From NCBI RefSeq assembly GCF_044324875.1, contig NZ_CP172185.1: a stretch of 64,000 bases of DNA; one strand, 5' to 3'. Under the pieces are notes generated by a model. It made no database searches and was not told the origin of the DNA. It was given only the letters and a program-made list of their open reading frames with translations. Below are positions 5,209-12,672 of the stretch, in pieces (positions within the stretch are counted from its first letter, which is position 1; every line of letters starts with the position of its first letter). The DNA is from Escherichia coli. Its GTDB lineage: Bacteria > Pseudomonadota > Gammaproteobacteria > Enterobacterales > Enterobacteriaceae. The translations under genes and the position numbers were made by a program.

Positions 5209-7398
5209 TTAGAAGCGGAAGGTTGCGGTTGCAACGACCTGACGTTCTGCGCCCCAGAAGCAGCCATAGGTCTGGAAGCAACTGGCAACATACTCACGAT
5301 CGAGCAAATTGTTGACGTTCACAGCAAGGCTGGATCCCGCCATACCAAAGCGTGCCAGATCATATTTTACAACAGCATCCATTACAGCTGCGCTACCCAC
5401 TTTAAAAGTGTTTGCCGGATCACCATAGCTGGAACCAATAAAACGACCACCTGTTCCCAATGTTAAACCAGAAAGCGGCCCTTCATTGAAGGTATAATCC
5501 CCCCAGAGAGATGCCATATGCTCCGGTACTTGTTCTGGAGTTTTACCTTTGAGATTGGTGTCTTTGGTGTATTCCGCATCGGTGTAGGTATAAGAAGCCG
5601 TCAAGTTAATATTGGCATTTAACGCCGCTTTAGCTTCAAGTTCCACACCACGAGCGCGAATCTCACCTGCCGGGACTTGCGCTAATGGGTTTGTTGGGTC
5701 TGCTGTCAGGTTATTTGTTTTCGTCAATTGATAGACTGCGCCCGTAACAACGACCGGCATATCATTCGGAACATATTTTACGCCAGCTTCATACTGTTCA
5801 CCTTTCGATGGCTTATAGGAAACGCGCGGGTTGCTCCACAGATCGAAAGCACTCGGTTCAAAGGACTGGCTATAGCTAAAGTAAGGTGAAATACCATTAT
5901 CGAATAAGTAATTTACACCACCGCGCCAGGTGAACTGATGATCATTGCGCTCAATATAACCTTCAGTCGGCGTATAAGAGTTTTCACGAACAGTGGTCGC
6001 TTGCTTAGACCAATCGTAGCGTCCTCCCAGAGTGAATACCCATTTATTCCATTCCGCCTGATCCTGAACATAAATACCTGTTTGTTTGCTTTCATTCATC
6101 TGGTATGGCTCTGCGCTACCAAATGCAAAGTATTCAGGATGGTATTTGTTATAAAGATCGATGGATGGTGCAGATCCAAAGCTGGCATTGATATCATTGC
6201 GCATCCGCATGAAGTCTACCCCTGTCAGCAAAGTATGCCCGACGTCACCTGTAGCAAACTTACTTTCAAGTTGGGTATCAACGCTAAAGTTTTGTAGACG
6301 CTCATTATCCACCACTGTCCCGCGGTTTAGGGTATGACCATCGCTGGCAATCCCTGTGCCATAAACACTTTTCTGTGAGGTTTTCATTTCACTGAAACGC
6401 AGATTCTGACGCACGGTGAAGGTGTCATTAAAACCATGTTCAAAACTATATCCCACCATTTTCTGGTTACGGGAGTATGTATTATTCGATGCACCTTCAT
6501 TGAAATCAGTCGGTAGACGCTTACCATTAGGCAATGGCTCAACGGTCCCCTCTTTCGGCAACCAACCGTAATAACCCGTTTCTGGTTCGTTCTGAAAATA
6601 GGACAGGAAAGTAAAATTGGTTTTGTCGTCTGGACGCCATGAGAATGATGGAGCAATGGTATAACGCTGAGATTCAGAGTTTTTCTGCTGTTCGTTTGTT
6701 GAGCGTGCGAGGCCAGTCAAACGGTAGGAGAACTCACCGTTATCATCCAGCGCATCACTGAAATCGAATCCGGTCTGAAACAGATTATCCGTCCCCATTT
6801 TAAACTGAATTTCTTTCAGGGGTTCAGTTGTCGGACGCTTACTCACCATAGAAATAATCCCACCAGGATTACTTTTCCCATAGAGAACAGACGTCGGCCC
6901 GCGCATCAGTTCAACCCTCTCGAGCATGTAAGGATCAATCACAGCATCGTTATAAAAGTTGCCCTGAAGTTTTAGTCCATCAAGGTAATTATTTTGATTC
7001 AGACCAACAGATGAGAAACCACGAATAATAACAAAATCATATGTATTAGAAGCACCACGACTGCTAACCGTAACGCCAGGTGTATAACCTAATGCTTCTT
7101 TTACAGACTGAAATTGATGCATCTGCATCTCTTCATTTGTCACAACCGAAATAGACTGCGGCGTTTTTTCAATTGGTGTATCCGTTTTAGTCGCAGTAGC
7201 AGAGTGCTTCGCCGCAATAGTTGCAGCTGGCCCCCATGCGCTTTCTTGCGGCGCAGGTGCAGCGGTAACGGTGATAGTGTCTTCTTTCGGTTCAACCGCT
7301 GCCTGTGCATAAACAGACATGCCGCTAACCGCTGTGGCTACTACAACTGCGATTTTACGCAGTGAGTGTTTTGGCTGAGCAGTTTTGGAACGCGCCAT
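5209..7398 (-). CDS. fhuA: TonB-dependent ferrichrome outer-membrane receptor / phage receptor
   Basis: 729-aa ORF; signal peptide MARSKTAQPKHSLRKIAVVVATAVSGMSVYAQA, TonB box DTITV, C-terminal ATATFRF; Fur box upstream. Confidence 0.92.
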   Translation of the reverse strand: MARSKTAQPKHSLRKIAVVVATAVSGMSVYAQAAVEPKEDTITVTAAPAPQESAWGPAATIAAKHSATATKTDTPIEKTPQSISVVTNEEMQMHQFQSVKEALGYTPGVTVSSRGASNTYDFVIIRGFSSVGLNQNNYLDGLKLQGNFYNDAVIDPYMLERVELMRGPTSVLYGKSNPGGIISMVSKRPTTEPLKEIQFKMGTDNLFQTGFDFSDALDDNGEFSYRLTGLARSTNEQQKNSESQRYTIAPSFSWRPDDKTNFTFLSYFQNEPETGYYGWLPKEGTVEPLPNGKRLPTDFNEGASNNTYSRNQKMVGYSFEHGFNDTFTVRQNLRFSEMKTSQKSVYGTGIASDGHTLNRGTVVDNERLQNFSVDTQLESKFATGDVGHTLLTGVDFMRMRNDINASFGSAPSIDLYNKYHPEYFAFGSAEPYQMNESKQTGIYVQDQAEWNKWVFTLGGRYDWSKQATTVRENSYTPTEGYIERNDHQFTWRGGVNYLFDNGISPYFSYSQSFEPSAFDLWSNPRVSYKPSKGEQYEAGVKYVPNDMPVVVTGAVYQLTKTNNLTADPTNPLAQVPAGEIRARGVELEAKAALNANINLTASYTYTDAEYTKDTNLKGKTPEQVPEHMASLWGDYTFNEGPLSGLTLGTGGRFIGSSYGDPANTFKVGSAAVMDAVVKYDLARFGMAGSSLAVNVNNLLDREYVASCFQTYGCFWGAERQVVATATFRF

Positions 7399-7419
7399 TG
7401 GTATATCTCTGATGTAAAG

Positions 7420-7452
7420 TGAATGATAACGTAAACGAGAATGATTATTATA
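7420..7452 (-). promoter_or_regulatory. Fur box in fhuA promoter
   Basis: gtgaatgataacgtaaacgagaatgattatta resembles the Fur consensus GATAATGATAATCATTATC, 20-50 bp upstream of the fhuA start. Confidence 0.6.
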
Positions 7453-7617
7453 AAGATAAGATAATATTCGAAACGCTGGCGGGTTCGCAAGCGGTACGCA
7501 ATCTGAGCGTTCCTGAAGGGTTAATAAACAACCAGATGAAAAGAAAGGGTTAATACTTTGGGTGGGATGTTATTTTACCGGATGGCTACTCGCCATCCGG
7601 TATGTCACGCTTAGACG

Positions 7618-10149: not shown

Positions 10150-10242
10150 GCTTTTTCTCCGCAATATTCAGGCGCAAAAGCCCGATTTTCTGTTCTTCTG
10201 TTGCAAGACAGAAGAAGATATCTCTCAAATTTGCTTTGGTCT

Positions 10243-12672
10243 TCACGAATACTTTTTCGTCCGTCGCGTCGGTGCCGTGTTTGCCGGGTCGTCCGGCCAG
10301 ACGTGTTTGGGATAACGCCCTTTCATCTCCTTTTGCACCTCACGATACGCCCCTTTCCAGAAGGCCCCCAAATCACGCGTGATTTGCAGCGGCCTTTGGG
10401 CAGGGGAAAGCAACTCCAGCACCAGCGGCACGCGCCCCTGGGCGATCGTCGGATTGGTGGCCTCACCAAACATCTCCTGCATTCTCACCGCCAGCGCGGG
10501 CGGGTTATCTTCATGATAACGAATGGCGATCCGGCTTCCCGTCGGCACAGTGTAATGCGCAGGCAATTCACTATCCAGACGTTGCTGCATTCCCCAATCA
10601 AGTAATCCGCGTAGTGCCTGATAAATGTCGAGTGATTTCAGGCCGCGTAGTGAATGCACGCCGCTCATATGCGGCAGTAGCCACGTTTCCAGCGTCGCCA
10701 ACAAACTCTCATCATCAACCGCTGGCCAGTCATATTCCGGCAACCACTTTGCGGCGCATAACAAACGCAAGCGTAGCTGTTCCGCTTCCGCCGTCCAGTT
10801 GAGCACGCTTAAACCTTTATCACGAATGCCGTTAAGCATCGCCTGATGCAACTCGTCTTCCGAGGGTTTCGCCAGTGGCTGCACTTTCACCGTCAACTGA
10901 CCGATTTGCAGCCGACGCCAGGCTTTCAGCGTACCTTGCGCGTCATCCCACTCCACAGTGTCAGACTGCTGTACCAGCTGCGGGCAGCGTTGTACTAACT
11001 CATCAATATCGACCGGCAGCGCCAGTAAAATCCGCGCATCCGGCGAGGCGCTGCCCTGCAATAATAACGGTGCGATCAACCATTCGTGGCGGCTTAGCGC
11101 ATCGTCGGCATCGAGCATCGCCCCCATGCCGTTTGCCAGTTGATAGCGTCCATCTTGCCCACGGCGGCGAGCAATGCGATCGGCAAACGCCCCGGCAAGT
11201 AGCGGCGCGATAAGCGAACTGTCTGCCTCACCGCCGCGTACGTTTAAGCGTTTTAACAGTTGCTGACTACGTTGCTGCCAGGCTGGTTGATTGCGCGAAA
11301 ACGCCACGCCCAGGTCACTATTGCCCATCCGTGGCGGCTCTTCGAGAATGGCGGCAATTTTTGCCGCGGTAGCAGCTTCGTCGTCGCTCTTTGCGCTAAC
11401 CAGCATTGCCGCTAAACGCGGATCGTTACCCAGCGCTGCCATTTTTTGCCCCTGCGCACTAAGCCGTTCACCGTCCAGCGCCCCCAGCATCCGTAACAGG
11501 CGTTTCGCGGCCAGTAGATTCACCGTTGGCGGTTGATCCAGCCAGCTCATCTGCGCCGTATCGCTGCATCCCCATTGCAGTAATTCCATCAGCAAACCGG
11601 AAAGATCGCTTTGTAATATTTCCGGTTCACTTTGCGCCGCGGCGCGTTCGGCTTGTTCTTTGGCGATTAAATGCAGGCAGATACCCGGCTCCAGACGCCC
11701 GGCGCGCCCGGCACGCTGCGTCATGGATGCCTGGCTAACGCGTTGAGTAATCAGTCGCGTAAGCCCCGTGCGCGGATCAAAACGCGCCACACGCTCCTGG
11801 GCACAATCCACCACCAGACGAATACCTTCAATGGTTAAACTGGTTTCAGCAATATTGGTCGCCAGCACCACTTTGCGCATCCCTTGCGGTGCCGGGAGGA
11901 TCGCTTTTCGCTGATCGTTCAGCGACAACGCGCCATACAGCGGGCAGAGCAACACATCACTGCCGATGCGCGAAGCCAGTTGTTCCTGCACACGCTGAAT
12001 TTCTCCGACGCCAGGTAAAAATAACAGTAATGATCCGCTTTCCTGACGCAGTATTTCGGCGGTGGCTACCGCAACGGCTTCGTCAAAACGCTGATGCGCG
12101 GGCAGCGGTAAATAACGGCGTTCAACCGGAAACGAGCGCCCTTCTGAGATGACGACGGGCGCTCCTGGCAGCATTTGCTGCAAGCGGTCGTTGTCCAGCG
12201 TAGCCGACATAATCAGCAGTTTAAGGTCATCACGCAGACCTTGTTGCACATCGAGTAACAGCGCCAACGCCAAATCCGCCTGCAAGCTGCGCTCATGAAA
12301 CTCATCGAGGATCACCAATCCAACACCGCTCAGTTCAGGGTCACGCTGGATCATGCGCGTCAGCACGCCTTCGGTAACCACTTCCAGGCGGGTATTCGGC
12401 CCGACGCAGTTTTGCGCACGCATCCGGTAGCCAACGGTATCGCCTGGCTTTTCGTTAAGCAGCTCCGCCAGCCGTTGCGCAACGTTACGCGCCGCCAGAC
12501 GACGCGGCTCCAGGAGGATAATTTTCCCGTTAATGCCGGGATGCGCCAGCAGTTGCAGCGGCAGCCAGGTTGATTTCCCGGCCCCGGTCGGCGCACTTAA
12601 TAACACCTGCGGTGCACCATCGAGGGCAGCAAGTAACTCAGGTAAGACGGCAGCAACGGGCAACGACGACAC
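10243..12672 (-). CDS. hrpB: ATP-dependent RNA helicase HrpB (DEAH box)
   Basis: Walker A APTGAGKST, DEFH box; probable GTG start at VSSLPVAAV giving 809 aa; the ORF-track ATG lies further upstream. Confidence 0.92.
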   Translation of the reverse strand: MSSLPVAAVLPELLAALDGAPQVLLSAPTGAGKSTWLPLQLLAHPGINGKIILLEPRRLAARNVAQRLAELLNEKPGDTVGYRMRAQNCVGPNTRLEVVTEGVLTRMIQRDPELSGVGLVILDEFHERSLQADLALALLLDVQQGLRDDLKLLIMSATLDNDRLQQMLPGAPVVISEGRSFPVERRYLPLPAHQRFDEAVAVATAEILRQESGSLLLFLPGVGEIQRVQEQLASRIGSDVLLCPLYGALSLNDQRKAILPAPQGMRKVVLATNIAETSLTIEGIRLVVDCAQERVARFDPRTGLTRLITQRVSQASMTQRAGRAGRLEPGICLHLIAKEQAERAAAQSEPEILQSDLSGLLMELLQWGCSDTAQMSWLDQPPTVNLLAAKRLLRMLGALDGERLSAQGQKMAALGNDPRLAAMLVSAKSDDEAATAAKIAAILEEPPRMGNSDLGVAFSRNQPAWQQRSQQLLKRLNVRGGEADSSLIAPLLAGAFADRIARRRGQDGRYQLANGMGAMLDADDALSRHEWLIAPLLLQGSASPDARILLALPVDIDELVQRCPQLVQQSDTVEWDDAQGTLKAWRRLQIGQLTVKVQPLAKPSEDELHQAMLNGIRDKGLSVLNWTAEAEQLRLRLLCAAKWLPEYDWPAVDDESLLATLETWLLPHMSGVHSLRGLKSLDIYQALRGLLDWGMQQRLDSELPAHYTVPTGSRIAIRYHEDNPPALAVRMQEMFGEATNPTIAQGRVPLVLELLSPAQRPLQITRDLGAFWKGAYREVQKEMKGRYPKHVWPDDPANTAPTRRTKKYS

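Follow-up and report, generated by a model that had tools for sequence, protein, structure and literature searches.

The window, the whole stretch of 64,000 nucleotides of Escherichia coli DNA that was analysed (RefSeq assembly GCF_044324875.1, contig NZ_CP172185.1), carries at positions 5209-7398 an intact open reading frame for a protein of 729 aa. It lies on the minus strand, which the sequence-only reading of this DNA had not given. The gene order mrcB-fhuA-fhuC-fhuD-fhuB-hemL is the same as in K-12, with fhuA downstream of mrcB as the first gene of the fhuACDB operon. The gene is a deeply divergent fhuA allele at the normal mrcB-fhuA-fhuCDB locus. The following features were recognized in the gene and in front of it; E3 is one of the FhuA clusters described by Wang et al. 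2018 and is treated further below.

7399..7500, minus strand: fhuA promoter and 5' untranslated region, K-type, with the AT-rich stretch TATTATCTTATCTTTATAATAATCATTCTC
5209..7398, minus strand: fhuA coding sequence of 729 codons and a stop codon, for a ferrichrome porin and phage receptor of E3 type (open reading frame call, NCBIfam, Pfam and structure matches)
7210..7398, minus strand: fhuA 5' end, K-12 sequence save one private SNP at 7228
7300-7398, minus strand: signal peptide, same as K-12
7267-7281, minus strand: TonB box DTITV, same as K-12
about 5269..7209, minus strand: divergent block ('cassette') that takes in the greater part of the cork and nearly the whole barrel, 70.8% nucleotide identity to K-12 and 79.9% to Salmonella
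5209..5268, minus strand: fhuA 3' end, K-12-like with one private SNP at 5215, C-terminal strand ...AERQVVATATFRF

On the NCBIfam equivalog NF007465 (ferrichrome porin FhuA), for which the cut-off is 803, the window protein reaches 1409.2 bits and the K-12 protein 1473 bits. Pfam places Plug at residues 76-181 and TonB_dep_Rec_b-barrel at residues 254-698, and the FhuA structures 1BY3, 2FCP and 8A60 are matched at E = 0. The C-terminus (...TATFRF) ends with an aromatic residue, and the features of a TonB-dependent transporter are all present (signal peptide, TonB box, Plug, barrel). A paralogue or another siderophore receptor is ruled out by the FhuA score together with the equivalogs of FoxA (592 bits, below the cut-off of 1300) and FhuE (92 bits, below the cut-off of 666). 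A pseudogene is ruled out by the intact reading frame and the low dN/dS, and an assembly artefact by the presence of the same block in 561 complete genomes. In the promoter the AT-rich stretch presumably resembles a Fur box, and a sigma-70-like site lies at 7490-7461. The upstream region has 7 mismatches to K-12 over 302 nt, and the 50 nt before the ATG equal the MG1655 fhuA knock-out primer without differences (PMC10373560 supplement).

In a BLASTP alignment with the K-12-type FhuA (747 aa, WP_000124438.1, locus L001) 559 of 754 positions are identical (74%), with 32 gap columns, and the window protein is 18 residues shorter. The neighbouring proteins are 99.9% (MrcB), 99.6% (FhuC), 98.6% (FhuD) and 99.7% (FhuB) identical to those of K-12. 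The sequence-only reading had described a divergent allele of the phage receptor, shorter than in K-12 and standing beside near-identical neighbours; alignment, equivalog score and syntenic locus bear this out, and with 74% identity and unequal length, rather than more than 98% identity and equal length, the divergence stands. Its quotation of one loop, K-12 GYGVCSDPANAYSKQCAALAPADKGHYLARKYVVDDEKLQNF appearing in the window as GTGIASDGHTLNRGTVVDNERLQNF, is exact in the BLASTP alignment. Synonymous divergence from K-12 (dS) is 1.94 for fhuA and 0.06-0.13 for the flanking genes, and dN/dS of fhuA is 0.086. The contrast in K-12 identity between fhuA and its neighbours is far beyond chance.

The divergence has sharp limits. 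A two-breakpoint maximum chi-square scan delimits the divergent block at 7213..5267 (chi2 = 1427), with 557 differences from K-12 in 1915 positions inside (29.1%) versus 228 in 7848 outside (2.9%). The first and last allele-specific sites, 7209 and 5269/5272, are common to four E3 carriers. The 5' end of the gene (7210..7398) is about 100% K-12 but 87% identical to Salmonella, which makes the junction a real recombination junction.

Loop boundaries for L4 (mature residues 318-339), L5 (394-419) and L8 (552-558) were taken from PMC10373560 Table S1; for L6 and L7 the assignment is that of Wang et al. 2018, with Indel 5 as L6 and Indel 6 as L7. The changes from K-12 are concentrated in L4, L5, L6, L7 and L8.

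6481..6573, minus strand: loop L3, conserved, 30 of 31 residues as in K-12, holds the ferrichrome-binding Tyr244 and Trp246
6334..6348, minus strand: loop L4, down to ASDGH (5 residues) versus CSDPANAYSKQCAALAPADKGH in K-12, 17 residues gone
6115..6171, minus strand: loop L5, 7 residues fewer, 32% identical to K-12 (APSIDLYNKYHPEYFAFGS)
5959..5988, minus strand: loop L6 region, 5 additional residues (RENSYTPTEG)
5809..5856, minus strand: loop L7, 2 residues more, 21% identical to K-12 (PSAFDLWSNPRVSYKP)
5680..5700, minus strand: loop L8, DPTNPLA versus DPEGSFF in K-12, Glu554, Phe557 and Phe558 replaced, 2 of 7 residues identical

In L4, Cys329 and Tyr325 are missing and Cys318 is replaced by Ala, so that the Cys318-Cys329 disulfide pair is lost. 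L10 and L11 are kept as in K-12. An AlphaFold2 model of the window FhuA (32-sequence alignment) has a mean pLDDT of 52 and a pTM of 0.52; loop geometry in so poor a model is unreliable and a fold search is not warranted, and it served solely as a coarse check on where strands and loops lie within residues 307-612. Sequence identity to the solved FhuA structures is decisive in any case.

Nine of 11 pocket residues checked are kept (R81, G99, F115, Y116, Y244, W246, Y313, F391, F693) and two are changed relative to K-12 (Q100L, Y315T), in a provisional list that goes back in part to the 1998 FhuA crystal structures. The C692-C698 pair is conserved. Y244 and W246 are ferrichrome-binding sites (PMC10373560), and pocket roles of F115/Y116 and Y244/W246 are supported in PMC9586334 and PMC10373560. 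As the protein is 95% identical to that of Salmonella, at a dN/dS of 0.007, transport of ferrichrome and albomycin is probably retained.

In E. coli the FhuA of S. typhimurium gives ferrichrome and albomycin transport and sensitivity to ES18, and is not known to give sensitivity to T1, T5, phi80 or colicin M. The MccJ25 resistance of S. Typhimurium is attributed to its own FhuA. In the cryo-EM structure of T5 pb5 with FhuA, 27 hydrogen bonds link the two proteins, and 23 of them come from EL4 (8), EL5 (8) and EL8 (7) (PMC9586334). SO1-like phages no longer infect when L8 is deleted, and the same study treats what L8, F557 and Y325 do in infection (PMC10373560). These phage-contact loops, EL4, EL5 and EL8, are among the remodelled loops of the window FhuA, which makes the idea of a changed susceptibility well motivated. 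The K-12-type L4/L5/L8 contact surface for T5/T1/phi80, colicin M and MccJ25 is absent from the window protein. The remodelled loops suggest a different susceptibility to phages and bacteriocins, and recognition of T5, T1, phi80, colicin M and MccJ25 may well be lost. Deletion of L4 or L5 singly from K-12 FhuA affects T5 just modestly (PMC9586334; Degroux preprint), so that no single loop change guarantees the loss of T5 binding, and the phenotypes of the FhuA clusters 'need to be verified experimentally' (Wang et al. 2018, bioRxiv 10.1101/320069). The S. Typhimurium strain of the Degroux preprint neither plates nor adsorbs T5. That result is confounded by O-antigen and other factors, and the FhuA identity of 96-100% stated there is unlike the S2 protein.

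Its indel pattern makes the window allele a member of cluster E3, the partner of Salmonella S2, and as such it is already described (Wang et al. 2018, Infect Immun 86:e00573-18; bioRxiv 10.1101/320069). In E3 the insertions that E1/S1/E2 have in L4 (Indel 3) and L5 (Indel 4) are missing, those in L6 (Indel 5) and L7 (Indel 6) are present, and Sub1 in turn T4 sets the cluster apart from S2. The window FhuA has this pattern, with 17 residues fewer in L4, 7 fewer in L5, 5 more in L6 and 2 more in L7. Residues 384-388 (Sub1, periplasmic turn T4) read GDVGH in the window versus GDIDH in Salmonella. Among 5,426 complete genomes of E. coli, 561 (about 10%) have the block at 98% identity or more; identity to the block is bimodal among E. 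coli genomes, with nothing between 80% and 95%. The exact window protein occurs on at least 1000 public contigs. Beyond the text of Wang et al. (bioRxiv version), we add the breakpoints, the frequency in 5,426 complete genomes, the low GC3 and the saturated synonymous divergence from S2, which argue against a recent exchange between Escherichia and Salmonella.

The window fhuA has a GC content of 46% and a GC3 of 41.7%, the flanking genes a GC3 of 57-71%. Elsewhere fhuA has a GC3 of 53.5% (K-12) and 56.2% (Salmonella); the value in the window is the lowest among the sampled fhuA genes and is equalled only by another E3 copy (L003). Together with the high dS against K-12, this base composition marks the sequence as foreign. 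The dN/dS values of 0.086 (against K-12) and 0.007 (against Salmonella) indicate purifying selection and no decay. A donor of the E3 block was not found in one genome per GTDB species or in a collection of 5.8 billion proteins. The best relatives outside Escherichia are, by amino acid identity, Salmonella (95%), Citrobacter sp. (93%), Superficieibacter (92%), Lelliottia (91%) and MAG protein P0002 (91%); they share just 75-85% DNA identity and have a higher GC3. FhuA clades split each of the genera Citrobacter, Lelliottia, Trabulsiella, Kosakonia and Buttiauxella, as allele families that cross genera.

We consider it very likely that the window carries a functional fhuA of the E3 class, in which a block from an old lineage was recombined into the E. 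coli locus, with transport kept and the outer surface changed. About 1.94 kb of the middle of the gene (precursor residues 64-709, comprising most of the cork, nearly all of the barrel and all surface loops) would stem from a very old fhuA lineage. Homologous recombination in the two conserved ends of the gene, the 5' one with signal peptide and TonB box and the 3' one, would have linked it to sequence of E. coli type, and the ordinary E. coli promoter would drive the allele. What transport needs would be kept (TonB box, cork, L3, L10, L11 and most pocket residues), and the outside would be changed, as L4 is minimal and lacks its disulfide, L5 is shortened, L6 and L7 are lengthened and L8 is rewritten. 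Uptake of hydroxamate iron is expected to be unchanged, and the docking of phages, colicin and microcin to be changed. This fits a picture in which at least two receptor 'types' are kept side by side in E. coli and moved among its lineages by recombination.

That this E. coli lineage acquired its fhuA recently from Salmonella enterica by horizontal transfer is suggested by the collinear, gap-free and 95% identical protein there, a Typhimurium-labelled sequence included, by the identical L8, and by Wang et al. 2018, who place E3 and S2 in one group and propose an inter-genus exchange (bioRxiv 10.1101/320069). At the DNA level, however, the block shares only 79.9% identity with Salmonella, like its flanks (79.8-81.5%), and synonymous sites are saturated, with a pS of 0.749 in fhuA above 0.55-0.62 in mrcB/fhuC/fhuD/fhuB. 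The GC3 of 41.7% versus 56.2% in Salmonella fhuA also speaks against it, as do the E3 copies within E. coli, which differ by 1.1-1.9%, close to the 1.8-3.6% of their flanks, so that the allele is old in E. coli. Nucleotide identity of about 80%, saturation and GC3 refute a recent import from the sampled Salmonella, and we regard a Salmonella import as very improbable. Still less credit is given to the idea that the allele evolved at this locus through accelerated point mutation, with phages exerting positive selection. This is how fhuA was read earlier (Chen 2006 and Petersen 2007, as reported in papers citing them), and it draws on the inclusion of fhuA in lists of E. coli genes under positive selection and on the concentration of differences in surface loops. 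Against it stand a block dS about 15-30 times that of the flanks at a dN/dS of 0.086, the abrupt block boundaries, the shift in base composition, the same allele type in other genera, and the bimodal identities without intermediates in E. coli; the synonymous-site and composition data refute it.

The 729-aa type might also be the ancestral, vertically inherited fhuA of Escherichia and Salmonella, with the K-12 type as intruder, in a trans-species polymorphism of both. Identity of the block to Salmonella equal to that of the flanks, the occurrence of both types in both genera (E1/S1 and E3/S2; Wang et al. 2018) and the flank-like diversity of E3 within E. coli agree with this. It is nevertheless unlikely, as pS against S2 lies clearly above that of mrcB/fhuC/fhuD/fhuB, and the GC3, far below that of the E. 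coli neighbours, fits poorly with a long residence in E. coli. Moreover, E. whittamii and Escherichia sp. E1V33 have the K-12 type, and the divergence of E. whittamii fhuA equals that of its flanks.

Within the preferred reading of an old block recombined into the E. coli locus, phages may be the selective force that maintains the FhuA types. More tentatively, and with less than even expectation, the E3 block could be an unameliorated import from a lower-GC, unsequenced enterobacterial lineage, an ancient 'receptor serotype' with a surface frozen by purifying selection and held at about 10% by frequency-dependent selection through phages and bacteriocins. If so, fhuA types would act like balanced antigenic types and not like an arms-race gene that continually diversifies. 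For T5-like, T1-like and SO1-like phages, for colicin M and microcin J25 and for sideromycin antibiotics, the FhuA type is one determinant of host range. A share of about one E. coli genome in ten with the Salmonella-like E3 surface is worth knowing when phage-therapy cocktails are designed and host range is predicted from receptors, and the E3 frequency is also relevant to FhuA-targeted 'Trojan horse' drugs or vaccines. Mosaic evolution of this outer-membrane protein gene is an established case, already known, and opens no new question.

Compared with E3/S2 of Wang et al. 2018, the window allele has the same locus, indel pattern and grouping with Salmonella FhuA, and no substantive difference was seen. 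With K-12 FhuA (P06971; 1BY3, 2FCP, 8A60) it shares the locus, promoter, signal peptide, TonB box and family of cork and 22-strand barrel, but differs in its 74% identity, the absent L4 disulfide C318-C329, and L5, L7 and L8 at 21-32% identity. WP_000124383.1, the 729-aa FhuA of strain WCHEC035148 and the 'alternative allele' of ST410, is 4 residues from the window protein, and its block differs in 1.85% of bases. The two ST410 fhuA alleles share less than 74% nucleotide identity, and allelic replacement occurred via recombination (Feng et al. 2019, Commun Biol, PMC6715731). The ST410 alternative allele is another sub-variant, ancestral in ST410 and replaced in the B4/H24RxC clone (PMC6715731). 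A further known system (2022; PMC12175518) is alike in its conserved scaffold, its few discrete surface-loop types and its intragenic recombination at a syntenic locus; it is a patchwork of short hypervariable regions, whereas the fhuA barrel is essentially one block with two junctions.

The fhuA gene of the window is intact and encodes 729 aa, compared with 747 aa for the K-12-type FhuA of the reference locus L001 (a K-12-like chromosome, fhuA at 167484-169727). BLASTP between the two proteins gave 559/754 identities (74%) with 32 gap columns, whereas identity to K-12 is 99.9% for the neighbouring MrcB, 99.6% for FhuC, 98.6% for FhuD and 99.7% for FhuB. The sequence-only reading of fhuA as a divergent, shorter allele of the phage receptor among neighbours nearly identical to those of K-12 is supported; the loop sequence that it quoted agrees exactly with the alignment to K-12 FhuA, which gave neither equal length nor an identity above 98%. 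Against the NCBIfam equivalog 'ferrichrome porin FhuA' the window protein reaches 1409 bits (cut-off 803; K-12 1473), and none of the other NCBIfam siderophore-receptor equivalogs attains its own cut-off. Both domains, Plug and barrel, are detected by Pfam, and the protein hits solved FhuA structures at E = 0. About 120 nt of the K-12 fhuB-hemL spacer (~1414-1490) and about 100 nt of the hrpB-mrcB spacer (~10203-10300) are missing from the window; the missing stretches are possibly REP-type elements.

Features of window fhuA and its product relative to K-12 FhuA (mature-protein numbering; loop limits after Endriss & Braun, taken from a table in PMC10373560)
5209-7398, minus strand: fhuA, intact open reading frame, 729 aa
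Cork: 79% identity
L3: 30 of 31 residues the same
L4 (318-339): CSDPANAYSKQCAALAPADKGH in K-12, ASDGH in the window; 17 residues fewer, including Cys329 and Tyr325; Cys318 replaced by Ala
L5 (394-419): 7 residues fewer; 32% identity
Segment 420-501 (L6): 5 residues more
L7: 2 residues more; 21% identity
L8: DPEGSFF in K-12, DPTNPLA in the window
L10: 14 of 15 residues the same
L11: 12 of 13 residues the same

The length changes sum to -18 residues, consistent with 747 versus 729 aa. Pocket residues R81, G99, F115, Y116, Y244, W246, Y313, F391 and F693 and the Cys692-Cys698 pair are conserved, and Q100L and Y315T differ from K-12. An AlphaFold2 model from 32 sequences is poor (mean pLDDT 52) and serves as a rough check only; L4 is modelled as a short hairpin.

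The divergence is confined to the interior of fhuA. In a sliding-window comparison with K-12, nucleotide identity is 94-100% on either flank versus 58-85% in the block, and a two-breakpoint maximum chi-square scan placed the limits at 7213..5267 (chi2 = 1427), with 557/1915 differences within and 228/7848 outside. At base level, allele-specific differences are dense from 7209 through 5269. Over its first 189 nt, which encode signal peptide, TonB box (DTITV) and initial cork residues, fhuA is K-12 sequence apart from a private SNP at 7228, and the final 60 nt are K-12-like again; this SNP and another at 5215 are absent from K-12 and from other carriers of the allele. Because identity of the 5' segment is 100% to K-12 and only 87% to Salmonella, the edge is a real recombination junction and does not simply reflect conservation. 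The 302 nt upstream of fhuA hold 7 mismatches to K-12, and the 50 nt preceding the ATG equal an MG1655 knock-out primer in the supplement of PMC10373560, so that regulation should be that of an ordinary fhuA.

The nearest protein outside E. coli is FhuA of Salmonella enterica (729 aa, 95% identity, gap-free, the same L8), with one match labelled serovar Typhimurium, followed by Citrobacter sp. (93%), Superficieibacter (92%), Lelliottia nimipressuralis (91%) and Kluyvera intermedia (89%). A recent import from the Salmonella sampled was nevertheless rejected: DNA identity in the block is 79.9%, as in the flanks (79.8-81.5%), and synonymous sites are saturated by Nei-Gojobori counting, with pS 0.749 for fhuA versus 0.55-0.62 for mrcB, fhuC, fhuD and fhuB (fhuA dN 0.032, dN/dS 0.007). 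Saturation recurs against Superficieibacter, Lelliottia and Kluyvera, whereas the synonymous divergence of K-12-type fhuA from E. whittamii or Citrobacter is at the level of the flanks. A 726-aa relative (P0002) is not closer either. Window fhuA has a GC content of 46.1% and a GC3 of 41.7%, compared with a GC3 of 57-71% in its neighbours, 53.5% in K-12 fhuA and 56.2% in Salmonella fhuA; together with the copy of SCPM-O-B-8794 it is the lowest among 80 loci sampled. Most simply read, the allele belongs to an old lineage, which would have entered Escherichia from a lower-GC relative outside the collections searched.

Neighbour joining of 82 FhuA proteins yields three or more large clades. The genera Citrobacter, Lelliottia, Trabulsiella, Kosakonia and Buttiauxella each have members in more than one of them, and FhuA of K-12 falls with that of E. 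whittamii and of Escherichia sp. E1V33 in a clade other than that of window FhuA. Gene neighbours of fhuA are the same at most relatives' loci whose flanks were checked. In each genus examined (L001-L088), GC3 of fhuA is below that of mrcB, fhuC, fhuD and fhuB (Lelliottia 50 versus 70-78, Kluyvera 50 versus 62-74), suggesting that horizontal exchange of fhuA inside a stable locus is general.

Of 5,426 complete E. coli genomes, 561 (10.3%) carry the block with an identity of at least 98%; by megablast the others match below 80% or not at all, and with no intermediate identities among these genomes the distribution is bimodal. The sources of carriers are humans, dogs, chickens, pigs, gulls and river water. 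A protein identical to that of the window occurs on at least 1000 public contigs, under the annotation FhuA of E. coli (UniRef A0A0V9H9S6_ECOLX). Its 90%-identity cluster (window FhuA, P0001) also includes 265-aa FhuC proteins, clearly a product of the clustering, perhaps due to gene calls that were fused or misjoined, so that the count of 7392 members overstates the number of FhuA sequences. The window's own lineage is not closely represented among the complete genomes: the top match is 99.3% over the 24 kb of 8000-32000 and 99.6% in the fhuA region. The lineage may belong to Shigella or be sequenced in draft form only.

Carriers 2020N21-246, WCHEC035148 and SCPM-O-B-8794 have the block limits of the window (7209; 5269 or 5272), with 1.1-2.2% divergence from it inside the block. 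Among the window, 2020N21-246 and WCHEC035148, pairwise block divergence is 1.1-1.9%, slightly under the 1.8-3.6% of the flanks, so that the allele is about as old as E. coli diversity and is also transferred between lineages. SCPM-O-B-8794 (L003:1-3000, contig NZ_JAATUR010000035.1), labelled 'E. coli', is a GTDB species representative and an Escherichia lineage. Its dS to the window is 0.09 in fhuA and 0.20-0.32 in fhuC, fhuD and fhuB; by the latter genes it is as distant as E. whittamii, yet its fhuA is of the window type. Immediately upstream of its fhuA, where mrcB is expected, lie a fimbrial usher and an ORF resembling an adhesin; mrcB is absent from the 3 kb upstream in this locus, in L004 (Citrobacter sp.) and in L027.

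T1, T5, UC-1 and phi80 have FhuA as their receptor, as do colicin M, albomycin, some rifamycins and microcin J25 (PMC6795089). All loops but EL1-EL3 contact T5 pb5, and 23 of 27 hydrogen bonds come from EL4 (8), EL5 (8) and EL8 (7) (PMC9586334), the loops remodelled in window FhuA. Deletion of L8 (D552-F558) abolishes infection by SO1-like phage, and T5 binding moves F557 and Y325 (PMC10373560); the window protein has Leu for F557 and lacks Y325. On this basis ferrichrome uptake would be retained, recognition by K-12-specific phages and bacteriocins would be reduced or lost, and sensitivity to phages adapted to a Salmonella-type surface may be present. Deleting L4 or L5 singly from K-12 FhuA affects T5 only modestly (PMC9586334; Degroux preprint), so no one of these changes ensures that T5 binding is lost. 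Insertion of IS1, insertion of IS3 or a frameshift with internal deletion has inactivated several copies of the allele in complete E. coli genomes (hits H1, H36 and H4; NZ_CP070157.1, NZ_CP103673.1, NZ_CP182371.1; L087:3001-4517), the frameshifted copy being annotated as a pseudogene; receptor loss thus happens on this allele as well.

Wang et al. 2018 (bioRxiv 10.1101/320069) described FhuA clusters E1-E4 in E. coli and S1 and S2 in Salmonella, grouped E3 with S2 (without L4/L5 insertions, with L6/L7 insertions), and proposed recombination and phage-driven selection, with phenotypes said to await experimental verification; in later papers the group extends this to outer-membrane protein genes under the term 'mosaic evolution'. 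Judged by its sequence, the window allele is E3, a common, annotated and published variant. New here are the exact junctions of the E3 block, its presence in 10% of complete genomes, its anomalous composition, and the demonstration, from sequence divergence, that E3 and S2 have not been exchanged recently. The 'alternative allele of FhuA' reported in ST410 by Feng et al. 2019 (PMC6715731), WP_000124383.1, is the 729-aa protein of WCHEC035148 and differs from the window protein at 4 residues.
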